Of a DNA stretch of 64,000 nt, positions 1-32,765 are shown piece by piece; position 1 is the first letter of the stretch; each line of letters opens with the position of its first letter. Source of the stretch: Escherichia phage vB_EcoP_WFI101126; the sequence record NC_070991.1. One strand, 5' to 3'. Under the pieces are notes generated by a model, which worked only from the letters and a program-made list of their open reading frames with translations, was not told where the DNA came from and made no database searches. Both the position numbers and the translations under genes were made by a program.

Positions 1-64
1 AGCCTTTCTCTCACTCTCTAAAGGGGAACTAAATAAACGGGTAGCTAATGAATAGGATGGTATA

Positions 65-101
65 CACGGGGAAATAATTACGGGGAGTAGGCACGGGGAA
101 A
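65..101. repeat. Three closely spaced copies of YACGGGGAR (65-74, 79-87, 92-101) in the non-coding left end; ACGGGGA recurs at 323-329
   Basis: Read directly from sequence; 13-14 bp spacing. Confidence 0.5.
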
Positions 102-495
102 GGTGGAACGTTGAAAAGGAAGGTAAAGGCATTGCCAATAACCCTTTTTTAAATGAGGACTCCCCCTTTTTAGGAAACACGCGGGAAGCGGCTAGCCCCA
201 CTCGGTCAAATCAGAATTTTAAACTCTTATATATAAGGTTGAAAGAGAACTTATGTGGAAAATTAAGTTAATCATTAAGCAATTCAAATGTGATCACGAG
301 TACTATCGGATACGCAAAGCTTACGGGGATGAAAGAGTTCACACCCTTTATAAGTCCACTTGGAGATGTAGTAAATGTGGCAAGCTTAAACACAGCACAT
401 GGATGGACAGGCCTTAATGGAATGGATATTCTGGTTAGTAATAGTTTTCTGTTTATTCATCTGCTTCTCTATAGCGAGATGTATCAAGTATGACT

Positions 496-18870: not shown

Positions 18871-19905
18871 ATGGCTTATGGAATATGGACAAGACCTGCT
18901 GGACCTGGACCTGCGGCAGCTTCTGACATTTATATTGACAGCAATACAACTTTCCCACAACTTAAGAATAGGGTTAGTGGTAATTATAACTTTAATGGGG
19001 GCAGTAGAGATTTCCCTATTTCTGGATGGGATGGCTCAGGCCAAATCGTTGTAGTCCCTACCGGCTCTTTGTGTTGGCAATGGGAAGTCCCTCCTAACCT
19101 CGTCCCTGATGTGTATGTTGTAAACAATATCAGTATTGTAAATAACTCAACTTTCAGGGTTAGCATAAACATGAATCCCGGAAGTAACCCGCTGTTTGAC
19201 GTGGCTTTCAATGTATATCAAATATGGCCTAGAGCCAATAGAAACTATGGTATAACCTTTTCAAACACAGCTGATTACTTCTCTATATCAGATGCTGGAG
19301 TTGTTGGTCAATGCATTTGGGCTTGGGAAGGAAATATTAATGGCTCTATGCAAGTTCCTGCCATTAGTGGTTTTGATATGTCAAGAGCTTCGGTATTTGC
19401 TAACTGGTCTGGAGGGCAAGGTTTACTATACGATGCAGGTAGTCGTAATATCAGAGTTTATCAAAATAGAACATACGACAATGGAAACAACAACCAAACA
19501 GGTACAATTAACAATGTTAGGGTTGCAGTATTCTGTGATGGGGCTGGAGTCCCTACGCACAACGGTGGATTGAATATCTACTCACCTAATGGTTCTCAAT
19601 GCGTATTTTCTACTTACAGGACGCCTTTTATAGTTGATCGTTTTATGGCTATGAGTGGAGGGGATACTGGATTATCATACCCTATGATTCCTCTGACAAA
19701 TGGGGCTGGTTCGATTAGAGGTCAAGCTGGTAGTTGGTATTTCCAACACGCAAGATCCCATATAATGAACGGGTCTTCTTTTGGCACAGGGTATGGTCGA
19801 TATATGTTCCAGTGGGATAGAAGTTACGATATGGGTGGTGGTGGAGCTATCTCCCTTCAGGTTCCAGTGCTAGATGCTAGGAAGATTTTTAGAAGCATAC
19901 AATAA
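18871..19905 (+). CDS. virion structural protein (possible receptor-binding/tail tip)
   Basis: 344 aa; Gly/Asn/Ser-rich; position within tail gene block. Confidence 0.45.
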   Translation: MAYGIWTRPAGPGPAAASDIYIDSNTTFPQLKNRVSGNYNFNGGSRDFPISGWDGSGQIVVVPTGSLCWQWEVPPNLVPDVYVVNNISIVNNSTFRVSINMNPGSNPLFDVAFNVYQIWPRANRNYGITFSNTADYFSISDAGVVGQCIWAWEGNINGSMQVPAISGFDMSRASVFANWSGGQGLLYDAGSRNIRVYQNRTYDNGNNNQTGTINNVRVAVFCDGAGVPTHNGGLNIYSPNGSQCVFSTYRTPFIVDRFMAMSGGDTGLSYPMIPLTNGAGSIRGQAGSWYFQHARSHIMNGSSFGTGYGRYMFQWDRSYDMGGGGAISLQVPVLDARKIFRSIQ

Positions 19906-19914
19906 GGAGAACTT

Positions 19915-20697
19915 ATGGCAATTAGAATGGGTATAGAAGAACTAGACCCGATGGTTCAACAGGCTTCAAAGAAGTATGGTATACCAGCTGCTTTGATTCA
20001 TGCTGTAATTCAAAGGGAGTCTAGTGGTCGTCCTAAGGTGGCTTCCGGAACTGGTCCTGTTGGTTTGATGCAGATCAGTAAAGGGTTAGCCAAAGATTAT
20101 GGTTACAAGCTAGAAGATAGGCTTGACCCAGCCAAGAATATCGATATGGGTGCTCGTTACATCAGAGATAACCTGAAAGCTTTTAATGGTGATGTTAGGA
20201 AGGCAATGGTTGGCTACTCAGAGGGAACTGGTGGTGCTAAGCAGATGTTCGCTGGTAAGAAAGGATTTACCCCTCAGGCTCTTGACTCAATGAACAACAA
20301 ACACTTTCTTCCTTTCTATGGTGATGCAGCTTCTCAGATTGCTAACCCTATTGGGGCTTTACAAGCTGTTCAACCAGTTAATCAGTTTAATCCTGACTTG
20401 TTAGACAGAGAGAAGGCTGCACAAGCTCCAACTCAGGCAGAGATTGCTGCTTCTAAGACAGGTGCTTTAGGAGGTAATCCTGTAGAGTTCTACTCTGATG
20501 AAGTGCAGGAAGGAGAAGATCAGAAGCCTCAACAGAACTTTGGTAATGCAGTATTAGGGGTAGCTGCTATGCTTGCTGGTAAACCTCCTACTTCTCAAAC
20601 AGTTCAGAGGGCAAGTGCACCACATGCAGCAGGTTCTCAGTACAGTCCACAAACACAAGCAGTGCTCAGACGTTTGGCTAGCATTGGTGTAAAGTAA
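19915..20697 (+). CDS. virion-associated lytic transglycosylase (SLT domain)
   Basis: ALIHAVIQRESSGRPKVASGTGPVGLMQI matches the SLT E-S...GLMQ catalytic motif. Confidence 0.8.
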   Translation: MAIRMGIEELDPMVQQASKKYGIPAALIHAVIQRESSGRPKVASGTGPVGLMQISKGLAKDYGYKLEDRLDPAKNIDMGARYIRDNLKAFNGDVRKAMVGYSEGTGGAKQMFAGKKGFTPQALDSMNNKHFLPFYGDAASQIANPIGALQAVQPVNQFNPDLLDREKAAQAPTQAEIAASKTGALGGNPVEFYSDEVQEGEDQKPQQNFGNAVLGVAAMLAGKPPTSQTVQRASAPHAAGSQYSPQTQAVLRRLASIGVK

Positions 20698-20716: not shown

Positions 20717-21769
20717 ATGTCTTTATTTGGAAAATCAGCTTCTAGCAAAACCACAGTGGCTCCTTCCTCTCAGGTTGATGCCCTGCTGAAGCAGATTGTT
20801 GCTAATGCTCAGAATATGCAGAACAACGATCCGGGATTCATTTCCCAACAGCTGGCTGGGTTTAATGGCAACCAACAGGGTGCTCTGAATAATTTGGCAG
20901 CTTCTACAACTCAGAAGCAACTAGCTGATATGTACACGCCTCGTACTCAGCAAGGGTTGGACCAACTAAACTCTCTTGCCCAACAGTATCAGGATATCAT
21001 AAACGGTGGCGGTATAACTGCTGATGGTGTTAATAACTTTAATAAAGGGTTGAATAATTCAGCTCTTGCTCAAGCCACTAGTAAAGCAGCTTCCAACGTA
21101 TCTCTCGGGAATGGCTCTGATTCAGGTTCTCTTCGTAGAGCTGCTGCTCAGGGTGCTGCTTTGAATGGTGCTAATACAAACCTAGCTCGAACTATCAATG
21201 GAAAGAATATGGGAATTAATGCCCTTCAACAAGACCAAAACTTCCAGAGAGGCTTACTTGGTGCTCAGTCGGGGTTAGCTGGACAGAACCTTAATCTTGG
21301 TGCACAAGGTGTTCAGGCAACCCAACAAGCTATCCAGAATCAACTCTTGGCTGGTAATTTACAACAGCTACAAGATCAAGCTCAAGCTGACATTAATTGG
21401 CAGAATGCTATTGGCTCTAGGCAGTATGGATGGAATCAGCTTAACAACCAGCTTAATGTATTAAACAGTGTAAGTCCAATGGCTGGATATACAATTAAGA
21501 ATGCCGCTCCGGGTGTTAACACAGGACAGCAGATTCTTGGTGCTGGTATTACCGGATTAGGTATTGCAGGTCGTATGGGCGCTTTCTCTCCTAACCAACA
21601 GACTCAAAATGCTTGGAGTTCCTATAACAACTCAGGTGGTCAATCTGGAATGGCTGGTCCTATGATTGGAGGTTCTAATCTCTCTCAACAGAGAAGTCAG
21701 TCTAACTGGTTATCCACAGCAGGTAGTAATATCTTAGGTGGCGTCTTAGGGGCATTCGGAGCAAACTAA
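20717..21769 (+). CDS. Q/N/G/A-rich internal virion protein
   Basis: 350 aa low-complexity; N-terminus MSLFGKSASSKTT similar to next gene. Confidence 0.5.
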   Translation: MSLFGKSASSKTTVAPSSQVDALLKQIVANAQNMQNNDPGFISQQLAGFNGNQQGALNNLAASTTQKQLADMYTPRTQQGLDQLNSLAQQYQDIINGGGITADGVNNFNKGLNNSALAQATSKAASNVSLGNGSDSGSLRRAAAQGAALNGANTNLARTINGKNMGINALQQDQNFQRGLLGAQSGLAGQNLNLGAQGVQATQQAIQNQLLAGNLQQLQDQAQADINWQNAIGSRQYGWNQLNNQLNVLNSVSPMAGYTIKNAAPGVNTGQQILGAGITGLGIAGRMGAFSPNQQTQNAWSSYNNSGGQSGMAGPMIGGSNLSQQRSQSNWLSTAGSNILGGVLGAFGAN

Positions 21770-21781
21770 AGGAGATTTAAT

Positions 21782-22750
21782 ATGGCTTTATTTGGAGGAG
21801 GGAATAGTAAAACTACTTCCCAAATGATTCGCCCTGAATACATTCAACAGTATATTGACCAGCTTAATAAGCAGATTGGTAATACCAGTTCAGGGGATTA
21901 TGTTTATCGAGACAATGTAGGGTTTAATAACAACCAGACGGAGGCACTTAACAACTTAGCACAATCTGGTGCTCTAGGAACTCTCTCACAGCAATATATG
22001 GATGCAGCAGGTCAAGGGTTAGGGTATCTGGATAATGCCTATAAAGGTTATCAGAGCCTCTCTGGACAAGGTGGGATTACTGGAGAACAGATTGGTGCTC
22101 TCGCTGGTCAACTGTATGATGACGATGCTGTGCAAGCAGCTATTACAGCTAATAATGAGCAGGTTCAACAGAACTTGGCACGTAATGCGCTTCCTCAGTT
22201 AGCTCAACAGTTTGCTGGTCAACAAGGCTCAGGTGCTCGTATGGCTAAGTCTTTTGCCCAAGGTGATGCTCTGAATCAGATGCAAGGGCAAGCAACAGAT
22301 ATTACCAATAGTGCCTATAACTCTGCTATTAGCCAAGCTGAAAGTATCCTCTCTGGTAATAGGCAGAATCAGGCAGCTGCTCTCTCAGGTCTTTCTAATA
22401 TTGGTTCTAACCTTTCTAACCTAGGTCAGCAGGGTGCTAATTTGTCTCAACAGCAAATGATGAATCAATGGAATGCAGGGTTGCAGCAACAACAGCAACA
22501 ACAGAATGAATATGATAATGCCTACCAGAATGCTCAGAACGCAGCTAATTGGGGATGGCAGGATATCAACAACCAACTCGGTGCAGCAGGTGTACTTAAC
22601 GGTGCTCTCGGACAAACTACAACTACTAAAACATCTGGTGGCAAAGGTGGTTTCCTTGGTGGAGCTATGAGTGGTGCAGCAGCAGGTTCTTCCTTTGGGC
22701 CTTGGGGTGCATTAGCTGGGGGTGTAATCGGTGGGTTGGCTAGTACTTAA
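21782..22750 (+). CDS. Q/N/G/A-rich internal virion protein, paralog of 20717..21769
   Basis: 322 aa; N-terminus MALFGGGNSKTT; shared LNNLA...Q motifs. Confidence 0.5.
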   Translation: MALFGGGNSKTTSQMIRPEYIQQYIDQLNKQIGNTSSGDYVYRDNVGFNNNQTEALNNLAQSGALGTLSQQYMDAAGQGLGYLDNAYKGYQSLSGQGGITGEQIGALAGQLYDDDAVQAAITANNEQVQQNLARNALPQLAQQFAGQQGSGARMAKSFAQGDALNQMQGQATDITNSAYNSAISQAESILSGNRQNQAAALSGLSNIGSNLSNLGQQGANLSQQQMMNQWNAGLQQQQQQQNEYDNAYQNAQNAANWGWQDINNQLGAAGVLNGALGQTTTTKTSGGKGGFLGGAMSGAAAGSSFGPWGALAGGVIGGLAST

Positions 22751-22763
22751 TTAGGAGATAAAT

Positions 22764-23855
22764 ATGCAACAGACAACTTACGCTCAGGTTAGAAGTCGTG
22801 ACCCGAGAAATACTTTCTATGGTGTTAATCCGGGAGCGGCTTCGGCCTCTCCTTATATGGCTAGACCGACTCAGACAGCAGACATTTCTATGTACCAACG
22901 TCCTGCTGTACCTTCATCTCTTGCGGGTCTTGTCTCTCAGGCAGAAGAAGATCAGAATGCTATGATTAATCCGGGATTTCAGCAACGCCTTATGGAACAG
23001 CAGAGTCAAGGAATCCCTACCAGTCTTCAGGGTATTGATATTGGAGCACCAGCCCCTGTAGCGGCTAATCCTAACCTATCCACTGATCAAGGTTTACAAG
23101 ATGCAGGGCTTATGCCTAGTGACCCTCTTCCGGTAACACCTCCCCCTAAACCACTAGAAGCCGGTCCTATGGAATTTACTCCTTCTCAGGTGGAACAGGC
23201 ACAAGGTGTGATTAACACTCTTGCTCAAGGACAAGACACTGGTGATGGGATGACTGCTGCTACTCGTGCTAAAGATCAGGAACGTGTTAACAACGATATC
23301 TTGCAAGTTGCGAAAGCTAAAGACCCTTCGGAAGCTTGGAACAAACTACAGAAAGAACCGTTCTATCAGAACTCTAGTTTCTATACAGGTTTGATGGGTG
23401 TAGGTCTTTCAATCATGTCAGATAAATCTCCTATCGAAGCTTTCCAGATTGGTCAGGGAATGGCTAATCAGGATGAGACTAAGAAGCAACTGGAAGCTAA
23501 CCGTGATGCCCTGATTGAACAAGGTTTCTCTCAAGACTCAATCGCAGCTGCTATTGCTAACGGAGATCCTTCTCTGCTGAAGATGAAAGCTGTAGACCCT
23601 GCTCAGAAAGAAGCGTTGTATGCTGCTCGTGAAGAACGACAGAATGCTGAATGGGACAGACGTCAACAGATTCAAGAGCAGACTATGCGTGAGCGTGCTG
23701 AGGAAACTCGTCGTGCCGCTGAAGAAAGAGCTAATATGAACTTTGAACGTCAGAAAGAGTTGATTGGATATCGTGATCAAGTTAAGGCTGAACGTGCTGA
23801 ACAAGCTGCTCAGAGTTTTAACTTCAACCCGAAAGAAGTCCGTCTTGCGTGCTGA
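22764..23855 (+). CDS. internal virion protein, N-terminal portion of a gene split by a 55-bp tandem duplication
   Basis: Stop TGA 23853-23855 lies in second repeat copy; shares AEQAAQSFNFNPKEVRLA with next ORF. Confidence 0.5.
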   Translation: MQQTTYAQVRSRDPRNTFYGVNPGAASASPYMARPTQTADISMYQRPAVPSSLAGLVSQAEEDQNAMINPGFQQRLMEQQSQGIPTSLQGIDIGAPAPVAANPNLSTDQGLQDAGLMPSDPLPVTPPPKPLEAGPMEFTPSQVEQAQGVINTLAQGQDTGDGMTAATRAKDQERVNNDILQVAKAKDPSEAWNKLQKEPFYQNSSFYTGLMGVGLSIMSDKSPIEAFQIGQGMANQDETKKQLEANRDALIEQGFSQDSIAAAIANGDPSLLKMKAVDPAQKEALYAAREERQNAEWDRRQQIQEQTMRERAEETRRAAEERANMNFERQKELIGYRDQVKAERAEQAAQSFNFNPKEVRLAC

Positions 23856-24474
23856 ACAAGCTGCTCAGAGTTTTAACTTCAACCCGAAAGAAGTCCGTCT
23901 TGCTCAGAATACAGCTGAAGGTACGGTTGCTAAGCAGTGGGCAGAGAAAGGTGGCTTGTTTAACCAGTCCAATAAAGACTTGGACTTGGCTGATAAAGCT
24001 GTTAAGGACAAAGATTATCAGACGGCCCGTTCTGCTTACATGCAGGCTATCATGAACTCCGCAAGGGCTGAAATCGGTGCTACTCGTTCTCTTACCGAAG
24101 AAGACTTGGGACACTTTGCAGAAGACCCATCAATCTTCGTTCGTGTTGGTAACAAGTTTGCACTTAAATCTGGATGGCGTCCTACTGATTCTGCTCTTGC
24201 TTATGCTCGTAAGCAGGCTAACGTTGGTCACACCTCTGCAATGAAAGGTGTTGCTGATGCTAAGAGAGCTACGATTGAAGCTTATATCGGTTCTGGTATG
24301 GATAAGAAGAGAGCTACTGCATTGGTCAACCGTGCAATCCCTTCTGGTGGTTTCTATGACCCTCTAGGTGTTTTCTCTGAACAAGCGGAGGAAGCAGTTG
24401 GTGGTGCAGCAACCAATCCTAAGCTTAATGGTGCTTTATCGGCTGTAGAAGATACTAGCTGGTTCACGCAATAA
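23764..24474 (+). CDS. C-terminal portion of the split internal virion protein (track ORF, TTG start; first ~47 codons probably not native)
   Basis: Frame continues from second repeat copy to 24474; would join upstream ORF if one copy were removed. Confidence 0.45.
   Translation: MDIVIKLRLNVLNKLLRVLTSTRKKSVLRAEQAAQSFNFNPKEVRLAQNTAEGTVAKQWAEKGGLFNQSNKDLDLADKAVKDKDYQTARSAYMQAIMNSARAEIGATRSLTEEDLGHFAEDPSIFVRVGNKFALKSGWRPTDSALAYARKQANVGHTSAMKGVADAKRATIEAYIGSGMDKKRATALVNRAIPSGGFYDPLGVFSEQAEEAVGGAATNPKLNGALSAVEDTSWFTQ
23794..23903 (+). repeat. perfect 55-bp tandem duplication (23794-23848 and 23849-23903)
   Basis: Read directly; the two units are identical base for base. Confidence 0.85.
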
Positions 24475-24541: not shown

Positions 24542-27500
24542 ATGGCTAACATTAAACCGTGGGAAGAAGCTTCCAAAGCTCCTGCGTATCTGAATGCCTC
24601 TCCGGAGCAACAAGCTCAAATGAGAGAACAATATAAGGCAGCAGGTGGCTCTATTCCTGAGGAACAACCAGTAGCACAACCACAACAAGAAGAACGTGGT
24701 GCTATAGGTGAGTTTGCTCAAGGTGTGTCAAATGCTCTTCAATCTGGTGGTGCAAATATTGCAGCTAGTGCTGCTAAAGGTATTGGTGGTTTAGTTGAGA
24801 TTGGTGAGAATCTAGCTGGAACACAAACTAGTTATGGTAAGCGTATCCAAGAGAACTCTCAGAACCTTCTGAAAGAACGTATGGATAAGATTGAGGATGG
24901 GGTTGGTAAAACTGTTGGTCAGTATGCTGGCGTTGCTGGTGATATTGGTATGACTGTTGCTAATCCATTGGCTGCTGCTGCTATCATCGCAGGTCGTGAG
25001 ACAGGTCGTGCGTATGCAGACCAAACACCTGAAGAGGGAGAAGATAAATCTATTCTAGATGCGGCCTTAGTTGGTGGTGCTAACTATGCGGCTCAGAGAA
25101 TCCTTCCGGGTGCTGTTGGTACAGCTGAGTCCACACTTGGACGTATCGGTCAGAACGTTGCTAGTAACGCAGTGGCTGGTGCTAAAGGTGGCGCTCTTGT
25201 AGGTGCTGCTGAAGCTCAGAACAAGCATGGAGATGATACAACCTTTGCTAATGTATTAGAGGGTGCTATCGAAGAAGGTGCTATGGGTGCTGCATTTGGT
25301 GGTGCAGTTGGTGGGGTTCATGGTTTGATTAGCCGTCCAGACTCTGCTGTCTTCAAGAATACTCCAGAGTATGCGAAGACTGATATTGCTGCTGATGACG
25401 AACTAATTCGCAGTGCTAAGAATATTGATGAATTGAAAGAAGCCTACTCTAAAGCTGAAACTGCTAACGCTGCTTCTGCTCTGAATCTTCTGGATGAGAA
25501 TGGATTCCGTATTACAGATGCTGTTGCTGTAGATTCTCCTGCTGCTCAGCGTATTCTCAATACTGACCAAGCTCGCGCTGAGAAAGCTGCTTCCATTCAG
25601 AAAGAACATTCCAACATTCCGGGCCTTAACCCTTTAGCTTCTCCTGCTAAGACTCGTGGTAAAGCATTCGCTGATAACGAGCACAACCAGAAGCAGGCTG
25701 TTGCTATGAAGGATGCAATGGCTGATTACACCAAAGACAACACGAAAGCTCTTACAGATGTTCTAGATAATCTAGACCGTGAATTAACATCTCTCCGAGC
25801 TTCTGGTGATTTTACTGGTAGTCCGATTGATATTAAGAATCGTACACAAGCCGACCGTGACTTCATTGATGCTTACAAGACTTTCTACAACGAAGCAAAT
25901 CGATTCAAAGCTCGTGATGGTGAAGACTTTAATAACTTTGTAGAGAAAGCTGCTGAACTACAGAAGATGGCTGATAATGTTTCTCCAGAGATGAAGAAAG
26001 CTATTGGTGGGTTGAAGAAACTGAAAGGTATGCCTGAAGGTTTTAATCCTATCCAAGATGCTTACACTCTGAACAATACAGCTAAGTTCATGAGCAACCA
26101 AGATCGTGGTTGGACTTCCCTGACTGATGATGGATTCCGTGAGGCTTCTTCACCTAGTCTGGTAATGAACACTCTTGGTGCTGCTAAGTATGCTCTGAAT
26201 CGCTTCTCTTCTCAGCGTGCTCGCTCTCAACGTGTTAAGCAACAAGAGTCTAACAGTGAAGCTATCCGCTCTCTTGCTCGTGGTGATTTGGAAGTTGCTC
26301 GTGCTAAATCTACTGCCGAGGAAGCTCGTGCTAGGATGGAAGAAGAACCAGTTGTTGATGACATTAAATTTAAGACGCAAAATGACGTAGAAACCGAACC
26401 GGTTCGGGAGCCTTCTTCTAGTACTGTGACGGAAGAAAATCTTCCTTCTTCTGCTCCTCAAGAAACTCCTCTTACAGCTCGTGATTTAGTTGCTCAAAGA
26501 CGTGCTATCCGTCAGGCTGAACAGCGTCGCGCTGAAGAAGAGGCATTGGCTGCTCAAGAAGCTCCGGTCGAACAAGCTCCACAGGCTGAACCTCTCCCTG
26601 CTCGTAACCCTTTAGAGGAACGTCGTGCAATGGAACAGCAACGTGCTCAAGAAGAGGCCGCACAGGCTCCAGAACCCACCGTAGAGGAACCAACAGTCAA
26701 AGCTGAGCCATTACCTGCCCGTGCTCCTAAAGCTCCTAAGGAGGCTGTACAGGACGTTAAACCGGCAAGTGGTGTAGAACGTTTAGCTGCTATGTCTAGT
26801 GCTGCTCGTCAGGCTACCAAAGATCGTGCAGAACGTTTTGCTCGTTCTCTGTACTCTAAGGCTGCTAAGGCTAAAGCTACTGCTGAAAACTTCTTGGCTT
26901 ATAAAGGTGATCCTAAGGAATTGATGCGTCGTATTCGTCAGGAAGATAATGCTATCAACACTGAACGTCATGAAGAAATGGCTCGTAACCAGCTGGCTTC
27001 TCAGCAAGGTATTGCTACTGCTAAGAACAACACTGTACGAACTAATTTTGCTGAATGGGTTAAAGAACGTGGTCTGCCAGAAGACATTGCTACTAAGGCA
27101 TTACGTGCTGAAGAGAAAGGTTTAGGTGGGAACGTAACTAACTTGGATAGTCTGAAACGTCGTGCTGAAAGGTTGTATCAGAAGCAGCGTGAGGATGAGT
27201 TTGATAGACTGTACCAACAAGCTCTAGAAGAGAATAAAGCTTTCGATAACAAGAATGCTCCTAAGCTGGCTGACCAGAAGAAAGAGCTTCAGTCTGAGAT
27301 TGATGCTTTGATTGATTCAGAACCTTTACGTCCTGCTCAGAAAGATGCTATGCGTAAGCTGATGAATGATTTTGTAGATGGGAAGTTTAAATCTTCAGAG
27401 AAGGCTGGTAGGGAAGAGGCTTTGGAAGTTGGTCAGATGAAGGATATTTGGGATGGGTTTATTAATACCTATAACAGAGAGGTGAATGCCTTCAACAAAG

Positions 27501-28963
27501 CTAACAAGAACTCTCAGTACGAAGCTGCTGCTAAGCATTTACAGGCTCGTGAAGAACGTCTTGCTACACTCAGGAAAAAGGCTCAGGCTCGTTCGGATGC
27601 TAAAGCTGCTGTTGAGAATGAACGTAAAACTCTAGAGGCTATTGCAGCTCAGAAGAGTGAGATTGAGAAGATGATGGAGGGTTTACCTAAACCTGTTCGT
27701 GAGGCTCAGGAATCTCGTACACTGAAACAGTTGGCTGCTCACCACGATAAGAACTCTCCAGTTCCTCCAGAGAAGTTCCGTAGTTATATTGAACGTATTC
27801 ACAACGCCGAGTCAGATTACCTTGATCGTCAGCGTCGTTTAACTGATGCAGAGGAAGATGCTCGTCAGGCTAAGTGGAATAAGATGTATGAGCAAGCGGA
27901 AGAGATGAACCGTAAGTTTGATGTGGACAAGAGAGTTAAGCGCAGTGAAGAGCTTAAAGCGGCCCAAGAACGTGAGAATGACCTTATGGCAGTACAACGT
28001 CAACGTGATGACATTCATCGCCGCCTGATGCGTACTATGGAAGATAAGGGCATATCTAGAGAGGATGCTGAAGCGTTTGCTGGTTCCTACATGGATAACC
28101 GTTATGCACTTCTCGAGAAGCCTATGACTCCAACTGAACATCAGAATGCTCGCTCTCGTATTGAAGCTGATGTTGAGAAGTTCGCTAAGAAGTATGAATC
28201 AATGACTCCTATCGAGAAAGAGATTGTTAAGGTTACTGGAGATACTGAAGGTAAGCTTGATAACTTGGATGCGGATACTAGGAAGGCTATTGAGGAGGCT
28301 CAGAAGGTTGACTCTGATATTAAGAAACTGCAAGAGGAAGAGATGGAGATGGAGAAGATTCGTTCTGCTCTGCCTGATGATGAAAGATCTCAAGCAAATT
28401 CTGATATCTTGGAAAGCATTAAACAACAGGAAGAGGTCTTTGCTGATAAAGTAGAGAAAGCTTTCTTGAGTGGGAAAAGCTTGGATGAGTTGGTTAGTGT
28501 GGCTGAAGTTTTAGACAGGGTTCATGGTGCAGATAAGGCTGGTAACAACCGTCGCTTTGTACGTGCATTGCAGACTGCTGCTGAAAACAAGAAGAAGTAT
28601 GGTGATAATCCAGTAGCTTGGTTTAGTGCTGATGATTACTCTGCCATTGCTAAACTTGGTGCTTCTTCCGCAGGTGGTAACAAATCCAGAGCACTGGAGA
28701 AGATCTTTGGTTCTACAGCTGAACAGGCTAAGAGTAAGTTGCTTGGTAGGGATGATGTAGCGAAGATGAGACGTGTGATTGAAGAAAACCCTGATATCAA
28801 GATTCCTTCTTACAAGACAACGAATCGTACTGAGTACTTGCAGTTCTTGGAGAAGTTTAATGACGAAGGGAAGCCGAAGATTAAACGTGGCTCATTGTCA
28901 GAGAAGCTTGAACGCAGTAAGCGTCAATCGAGACTCCGTGTAAGAGTTCGACCTAAGGAGTGA
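24542..28963 (+). CDS. large internal virion / ejection protein (1473 aa; start corrected from track 24497)
   Basis: AAAGGAG before ATG 24542; Ala/Glu/Lys/Arg-rich, long coiled-coil-like regions; last gene of virion block. Confidence 0.6.
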   Translation: MANIKPWEEASKAPAYLNASPEQQAQMREQYKAAGGSIPEEQPVAQPQQEERGAIGEFAQGVSNALQSGGANIAASAAKGIGGLVEIGENLAGTQTSYGKRIQENSQNLLKERMDKIEDGVGKTVGQYAGVAGDIGMTVANPLAAAAIIAGRETGRAYADQTPEEGEDKSILDAALVGGANYAAQRILPGAVGTAESTLGRIGQNVASNAVAGAKGGALVGAAEAQNKHGDDTTFANVLEGAIEEGAMGAAFGGAVGGVHGLISRPDSAVFKNTPEYAKTDIAADDELIRSAKNIDELKEAYSKAETANAASALNLLDENGFRITDAVAVDSPAAQRILNTDQARAEKAASIQKEHSNIPGLNPLASPAKTRGKAFADNEHNQKQAVAMKDAMADYTKDNTKALTDVLDNLDRELTSLRASGDFTGSPIDIKNRTQADRDFIDAYKTFYNEANRFKARDGEDFNNFVEKAAELQKMADNVSPEMKKAIGGLKKLKGMPEGFNPIQDAYTLNNTAKFMSNQDRGWTSLTDDGFREASSPSLVMNTLGAAKYALNRFSSQRARSQRVKQQESNSEAIRSLARGDLEVARAKSTAEEARARMEEEPVVDDIKFKTQNDVETEPVREPSSSTVTEENLPSSAPQETPLTARDLVAQRRAIRQAEQRRAEEEALAAQEAPVEQAPQAEPLPARNPLEERRAMEQQRAQEEAAQAPEPTVEEPTVKAEPLPARAPKAPKEAVQDVKPASGVERLAAMSSAARQATKDRAERFARSLYSKAAKAKATAENFLAYKGDPKELMRRIRQEDNAINTERHEEMARNQLASQQGIATAKNNTVRTNFAEWVKERGLPEDIATKALRAEEKGLGGNVTNLDSLKRRAERLYQKQREDEFDRLYQQALEENKAFDNKNAPKLADQKKELQSEIDALIDSEPLRPAQKDAMRKLMNDFVDGKFKSSEKAGREEALEVGQMKDIWDGFINTYNREVNAFNKANKNSQYEAAAKHLQAREERLATLRKKAQARSDAKAAVENERKTLEAIAAQKSEIEKMMEGLPKPVREAQESRTLKQLAAHHDKNSPVPPEKFRSYIERIHNAESDYLDRQRRLTDAEEDARQAKWNKMYEQAEEMNRKFDVDKRVKRSEELKAAQERENDLMAVQRQRDDIHRRLMRTMEDKGISREDAEAFAGSYMDNRYALLEKPMTPTEHQNARSRIEADVEKFAKKYESMTPIEKEIVKVTGDTEGKLDNLDADTRKAIEEAQKVDSDIKKLQEEEMEMEKIRSALPDDERSQANSDILESIKQQEEVFADKVEKAFLSGKSLDELVSVAEVLDRVHGADKAGNNRRFVRALQTAAENKKKYGDNPVAWFSADDYSAIAKLGASSAGGNKSRALEKIFGSTAEQAKSKLLGRDDVAKMRRVIEENPDIKIPSYKTTNRTEYLQFLEKFNDEGKPKIKRGSLSEKLERSKRQSRLRVRVRPKE

Positions 28964-30944: not shown

Positions 30945-31471
30945 TTATTCTCCTAACAGCTTACGTATTCCATTGCGGAAATTATCGTACTCTTCAGGGT
31001 ATTCAAACCCACACTCAAGAAGAGCATAGTGAACAACCTTCAACAAATCCTGAACCTTATTCTTATCTTTGTGTCGATAAGCATATTTGATCATATTGGT
31101 TTGTTGGAAGTTCAACTGTGGGTTTGCATGATAAAACTCAATAGGTTGAATGATTTTAGATTCCGGGTTATAGTGTGCACCGCCAACCATAGTGTCTAAA
31201 GCTGGACTTCTTTTGCTGGTTTGTTTAGTTGTGGACTTAAAACTGACCACAGGAACAGAAGAGTAAACTATATACTCTTCCCCTACTGGTGGTTTTATTC
31301 TTAGTCCGCGCATGGCATATTCAATCTTCGTGTCAGTGGAACCTGAAGCAATCTCTTCAACAGACTTGCGATAGCTGTCAATAACTGCCCGTAGCATAGA
31401 GATTGTTTTGGTCATATCTTTTACTTTCTCATTAAGTACAACAACCTCTGATTCTTTGAAATCAAACAAAT

Positions 31472-31481
<10 letters not shown>
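30945..31481 (-). CDS. hypothetical phage protein, DUF3310-like
   Basis: GGAHYNPESKIIQPIEFY...NMIKYAYRHKDK...DLLKVVHYALL fits remembered DUF3310 pattern; recollection only. Confidence 0.45.

Positions 31482-32765
<1,284 letters not shown>

Follow-up and report, generated by a model that had tools for sequence, protein, structure and literature searches.

Proteins gp20-24 of phage SU10 were detected by mass spectrometry in virions and are missing from genome-release intermediates, and for this reason they are considered ejection proteins (PMC9509320). In this study, we analysed a window of 64,000 nt, one continuous stretch of the genome record MK373770 (77,307 bp, genus Kuravirus, coverage 97.9x; Table S4, PMC6563267) of Escherichia phage vB_EcoP_WFI101126, in which a gene inside the corresponding block is split by a 55-bp tandem duplication. 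Judged by its sequence, the split gene is orthologous to phiEco32 gp25 (phi32_25) and SU10 gp23 (SU10_023), with DNA about 93% identical and the same synteny in the gp20-24 ejection block. While the phiEco32 and SU10 genes are intact, the gene in vB_EcoP_WFI101126 is recorded as a 363-aa CDS followed by an out-of-frame remainder.

Identical k-mers at the two ends of a contig are routinely taken as circularity (PMC7077304), because a de Bruijn cycle that is written out as a linear sequence shares one k-mer between its ends. In coliphage 132 (PMC8483715), assembled with SPAdes 3.12.0, the contig carried a perfect 55-bp end overlap and was reopened to match T4 after one end had been trimmed, whereas in vB_EcoP_WFI101126 the overlap was evidently left untrimmed, giving an internal tandem duplication. 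The Phage Annotation Guide (PMC8785237) describes the same general class of problem, in which linear phage genomes that have been circularised keep redundancies 'located internally within the contig', but these are genuine terminal repeats that have been misplaced, whereas the repeat in vB_EcoP_WFI101126 would be a k-mer overlap without biological counterpart. The feature falls in this known class of assembler end-overlap or circularisation artefacts and represents no new biology. We consider it very probable that the 55-bp duplication arose during genome finishing and is not a feature of the phage; the true gene is almost certainly a single 1,656-nt ORF encoding a 551-aa ejection protein.

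The duplicated unit and the broken reading frame

The 363-aa product is identical in sequence to QBQ76450.1 / YP_010674204.1, annotated as 'hypothetical protein PQC57_gp022' of vB_EcoP_WFI101126, and the two proteins encoded upstream likewise match this phage exactly. In a profile search, the protein obtained after deletion of one copy of the unit (hereafter the repaired protein) matched phrog_12130 over residues 1-551 of 551 (E = 0, 1,186 bits). The neighbouring genes have the same lengths as SU10_020-024, and the split gene lies inside the gp20-gp24 ejection block (Table 1). The description of the locus as a virion protein gene in an earlier note, which was made from the letters alone, is borne out by its orthologue SU10 gp23, a virion ejection protein (PMC9509320). 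If it behaves like SU10 gp23, the repaired protein would travel in the phage head and leave it during genome delivery. For the giant ORF downstream, the mechanical start at ATG 24497 gives 1,488 aa, and ATG 24542 follows an AAGGAG motif. Positions 1-1473 of the phrog_14629 profile match residues 16-1488 of the mechanical ORF and SU10_024 is 4,422 nt long, thus ATG 24542 was taken as the start of this gene.

The two 55-bp units showed no mismatch in direct comparison, and Tandem Repeats Finder described 23793-23903 as a repeat of period 55 with 2.0 copies, 100% matches and 0% indels, in agreement with the identity claimed in the earlier note. The identity at period 55 spans 56 bases, corresponding to both copies plus one additional base. 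This is the sole exact tandem duplication of period 15-400 inside the window; a separate repeat scan covered periods 4-599 and runs of at least 25 bases. Since a perfect 55-bp repeat is impossible by chance, it is truly present in the deposited record. The microhomology at the duplication boundary is 1 nt, and a direct repeat of several bp at the boundaries, as expected for natural slippage or microhomology, is absent, which is weak evidence when taken alone. Near-zero microhomology fits an arbitrary contig start, unlike typical products of slippage.

As 55 is not divisible by 3, the duplication causes a frameshift, a premature TGA and the truncated 363-aa call. The ORF list agrees with the earlier reading that the upstream ORF ends at this TGA within the second copy while another frame runs on to the end of the gene; this second frame is free of stops over 23764-24474. 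The truncated product equals the intact protein up to residue 362 and then ends in Cys-stop. The translations of both frames have a peptide of 19 residues in common, RAEQAAQSFNFNPKEVRLA, and the 55-bp unit encodes residues 344-362; the peptide had been recognised before as shared, although it was listed one residue short. Deletion of one 55-bp copy, with 22764-23848 joined to 23904-24474, leaves 1,656 nt and a single ORF of 551 aa with one terminal stop, so that the predicted length of about 551 aa was reproduced by computation. No ATG or good Shine-Dalgarno start was found ahead of codons 363-551, which lack a convincing independent start; close ahead of the TGA at 23853, overlapping the stop region, there is an in-frame TTG (23845).

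Table 1. Features of the split gene and its neighbours in the 64,000-nt window of vB_EcoP_WFI101126
Feature	Position	Strand	Remarks
SLT transglycosylase, SU10 gp20 type	19915-20697	+	Upstream ejection-protein gene
phrog_4287 'DNA ejection protein', gp21 type	20717-21769	+	Upstream
phrog_4287 'DNA ejection protein', gp22 type	21782-22750	+	Upstream
Whole gene	22764-24474	+	1,656 nt / 551 aa minus one copy; phrog_12130
Truncated CDS as recorded, ORF1	22764-23855	+	363 aa; from the ORF list
55-bp unit, copy 1	23793-23847		Sequence CGTGCTGAACAAGCTGCTCAGAGTTTTAACTTCAACCCGAAAGAAGTCCGTCTTG; equivalent register 23794-23848
Junction of copy 1 and copy 2			GTCCGTCTTG / CGTGCTGAAC
55-bp unit, copy 2, surplus	23848-23902		Base 23903 (C) lengthens the identity by 1; equivalent register 23849-23903
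Premature TGA	23853-23855	+	Inside copy 2; made by the +55 frameshift
Codons 363-551 and stop of the true gene	23905-24474	+	Out of frame with ORF1
Giant ejection protein, SU10 gp24 type	24542-28963	+	1,473 aa; phrog_14629, SU10_024

Single-copy relatives and the predicted architecture of the intact protein

In a phage collection that does not contain MK373770 itself, 84 Kuravirus records matched the 1,711-nt gene region, and 61 of these 84 cover at least 80% of it. In all 40 of the matching Kuravirus records listed, the query aligned in two pieces over 1,656-1,659 nt, the value of 1,659 nt occurring in one listed record; as 1,656 equals 1,711 minus 55, the Kuravirus records listed carry a single copy. 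Alignment with Ptacy1532, phiEco32 and SU10 placed a clean gap of 55 columns in all three. Ptacy1532 is 98% identical across the gene, its unit differing by one base, and a 70-nt probe for the junction folded onto one 56-nt unit in 15 of the 15 records listed, including Ptacy1532. The three annotations inspected, including phiEco32 phi32_25 and SU10_023, each give one 1,656-nt CDS. At the protein level, each of the 32 homologues aligned, with identities as low as 34%, is a single chain of about 545-593 aa, and homologue P0001 is 98% identical to the repaired protein. The comparison with orthologues that the earlier note had suggested thus detected no extra 55 nt in the orthologues inspected, each of which is one uninterrupted ORF. 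The one-ORF architecture of the family, with about 543-593 aa, is absent from the genome as recorded and was restored only after one 55-bp copy had been deleted. As the Kuravirus orthologues are single-copy and single-ORF, the gene is not naturally two genes, an arrangement that had been named among those that would overturn the reading of a split gene; the relatives listed measure 1,656-1,659 nt and were found as single CDSs and single chains.

Searches of broader collections added little. An exact-pattern search for the two-copy junction in IMG/VR, JGI metagenomes and GTDB genomes gave no match, and these negatives are uninformative because the single-copy control pattern was also missing from IMG/VR and the metagenomes. 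An exact look-up in a collection of 15 billion proteins gave no entry for the repaired protein of 551 aa or for the candidate downstream fragments starting at TTG 23764 and TTG 23845; the exact proteins of vB_EcoP_WFI101126 occur on a single NCBI contig only, and none in the Logan or ENA assemblies. A later comparative paper on Kuravirus lists the genome and leaves the split gene uncommented. A Kuravirus record from another laboratory holds a shortened protein, myPSH2311 PSH2311_018 (P0042, 416 aa), which matches 75% of the query at 99% identity; the start site or the sequencing of that genome may be at fault.

The repaired protein was modelled with AlphaFold using 32 homologues, at a mean pLDDT of 68.5. 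The N-terminus, about residues 1-135, is predicted to be disordered and is rich in Pro and Gln; it is followed by a conserved predicted helical region at about 199-223 with the invariant motif PFYQNSSFYTGLMGVGLSIMSGKSP and by a predicted long helix of 72 residues (279-350). The pLDDT reaches 82-94 over about residues 300-520, mostly a compact helical C-terminal domain, in which 14 residues are invariant among the 32 aligned homologues, within K386...W548. According to this model, the frameshift would strip nearly all of the conserved and confidently predicted C-terminal domain from ORF1. The repaired gp23-type protein had no match in Pfam and no sequence relative in the PDB, its model had no significant match in Foldseek (best E about 0.8), and no hydrophobic segment was strong enough for a transmembrane helix.

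Two homologues of the phage SR02 type (P0060 and P0089, 559 aa) are 90% identical to the repaired protein over residues 1-321, while the C-terminal region of about 240 residues is unrelated in sequence. On these alignments, the gp23-type ejection protein is a natural mosaic with an exchangeable C-terminal module, the breakpoint lying within the predicted long central helix.

Probable assembly origin of the duplication and rival explanations

The source study sequenced its phages by 'either Illumina or PacBio', the platform not being broken down by phage, and assembled the Illumina genomes with SPAdes 3.12.0 '(55kmer)', yielding one contig per phage; the ends of vB_EcoP_WFI101126 were set to those of phiEco32 and SU10, and its terminal repeat length is given as '-' in Table S4 (PMC6563267). 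The length of the repeat is exactly the SPAdes k used for the Illumina genomes of that study. From the 55-bp signature and the low coverage of 97.9x, we infer that vB_EcoP_WFI101126 was among the genomes assembled from Illumina reads with SPAdes. Base 1 of the window aligns with base 1 of phiEco32 and with base 1 of SU10, showing that the contig had been rotated. In addition, the duplication sits in the middle of an ORF and breaks its frame, without regard to gene structure.

The sequence of events could be reconstructed as follows. Collapse of the terminal repeat in the short-read assembly would have produced a cyclic graph, which SPAdes would have written as a linear contig with the same k-mer as its first and last 55 bases, starting at an arbitrary position inside the gp23-like gene. 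If this contig was then cut at the start of the reference and its old ends were joined without trimming the overlap, two adjacent 55-mers would result, the former contig ends meeting at about 23847/23848. The annotation pipeline would subsequently have read a frameshift and called a 363-aa protein, and without the surplus copy the true unique genome would measure 77,252 bp. A short direct terminal repeat is known from phiEco32. From base 1 onward, the window corresponds to the left end of phiEco32 and SU10, AGCCTTTCTCTCAC (window 1-260), and the right-hand copy of the terminal repeat may be missing from the record, of which the window represents 64,000 of 77,307 bp.

Sibling genomes of the same study bear on this reconstruction. 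vB_EcoM_G9062 (MK373779), of which the first 99.4 kb were scanned, carries an exact duplication of 55 bp x 2 at about 93,652-93,761 of the record, with a microhomology of 0 nt and an identity run of exactly 55 bases. It truncates the neck-protein CDS G9062_00175 (gp14 type) and leaves an unannotated gap of 310 nt before the next gene. Among the matches listed of 505 phage records matching this region, a one-piece match was found only in MK373779 and its RefSeq copy NC_054920, and in the 13 other matches listed (13/13) the 889 nt aligned onto 834 nt, i.e. one copy; six of these 13 single-copy records belong to siblings of that study whose flanks are 100% identical. The two genomes share the pipeline, the reference-arranged ends, the 55-bp x 2 duplication and the splitting of a structural gene, but G9062 is a T4-like Tequatrovirus with the lesion in a neck protein and no extra base, whereas vB_EcoP_WFI101126 is a Kuravirus with the lesion in an ejection protein and one extra base. 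The G9062 duplication is probably also an artefact of SPAdes at k = 55. The recurrence of the match to k = 55 in an unrelated sibling is predicted by an artefact and is very hard to explain biologically. Of the three readings offered in the earlier note, an assembly artefact is thus the one favoured by the length equal to the SPAdes k, the rotated contig and the sibling with the 55-bp signature.

The error was not universal in the study, as five further siblings, MM01, PTXU06 (first 42.3 kb), WFI, WF5505 and HdSG1, contained no exact tandem duplication beyond a 15-bp repeat in HdSG1. A perfect duplication of 168 bp x 2.0 was identified in vB_EcoP_R4596 (MK373771) at 19870-20205, immediately before the head-tail connector gene and reaching into its start. 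SPAdes does not use a k of 168, and one copy was present in 11 of 11 relatives, which are up to 99.2% identical. This repeat is likely another leftover of a contig join. The locus tags of this genome read 'R4596rev' and its coverage is 953x, which may indicate PacBio/HGAP. In vB_EcoS_HdSG1 (MK373795), a tail fibre assembly gene at 31398-31978 was deposited as two CDSs with a 'putative frameshift'. Tandem duplication is absent from this site, which points to another kind of event, either real or a sequencing error.

A finishing artefact has to be weighed against a real and recent duplication that became fixed in the stock, truncating or inactivating the ejection protein, with the loss tolerated or the C-terminal part made separately. 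In favour of the latter, the record holding the sequence is deposited and of RefSeq grade, and according to its authors the coverage of the final genomes was checked in IGV (PMC6563267); however, coverage checked on a two-copy reference need not reveal a surplus of 55 bp. The modular nature of the gene, as exemplified by P0060, would allow the N-terminal module to act somewhat independently, and TTG 23845 is a candidate for re-initiation because it overlaps the stop region, but the downstream part has neither an ATG nor a good Shine-Dalgarno sequence and the region lost contains the 14 invariant residues. Plaque formation by a phage whose conserved virion ejection protein carries such a lesion is conceivable but unlikely. 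Moreover, the duplication has no copy in the matching relatives listed and is bordered by only 1 nt of microhomology, and its length would have to equal the assembler k by coincidence, a coincidence recurring in the neck-protein gene of an unrelated phage from the same study. Gene 14 of T4 is essential. Taken together, we regard a fixed duplication as very improbable. If it were real, either the N-terminal module would suffice to deliver the genome or re-initiation at TTG 23845 would provide the C-terminal domain, making this domain dispensable or functional in trans.

Heterogeneity can occur in phage lysates, and a minority or a majority of the population could carry the duplication, with the assembler reporting that variant. 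The coincidences of k = 55 and of the sibling apply here equally, though, such a variant would require a de Bruijn assembler with k = 55 to resolve a loop whose length is exactly k, and there is no independent sign of heterogeneity; a mixed population therefore appears even more improbable than a fixed duplication. Finally, structural genes of phages are known to use programmed frameshifts, one example being the gp9/gp10 capsid fusion of SU10 (PMC4281155), but a programmed frameshift or a natural two-gene arrangement with two products has a negligible chance at this locus and was ruled out by the comparison with relatives, as the split is not conserved and the inspected orthologues are uninterrupted and without the extra 55 nt.

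Consequences for databases and for the gene family

If the duplication is a finishing artefact, as is very probable, its effects reach beyond a single record. The truncated 363-aa product is present in GenBank, RefSeq and UniRef (QBQ76450.1, YP_010674204.1 and UniRef100_A0A482MTI6), and at 90% identity it clusters with the mosaic 559-aa family and not with its true orthologues, which is explained by the SR02-type mosaicism over residues 1-321. Through such mis-clustering, an error made once in finishing is passed on to protein clusters and to the counts of 'core genes' in pangenomes. The signature lends itself to screening, namely a perfect two-copy repeat that is unique to one record and has the length of a k in common use by assemblers (21, 33, 55, 77, 99 or 127). 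Both vB_EcoP_WFI101126 and G9062 (NC_054920) stand in RefSeq with a truncated structural protein, and the value of the finding lies in curation, the underlying biology of the phage being ordinary.
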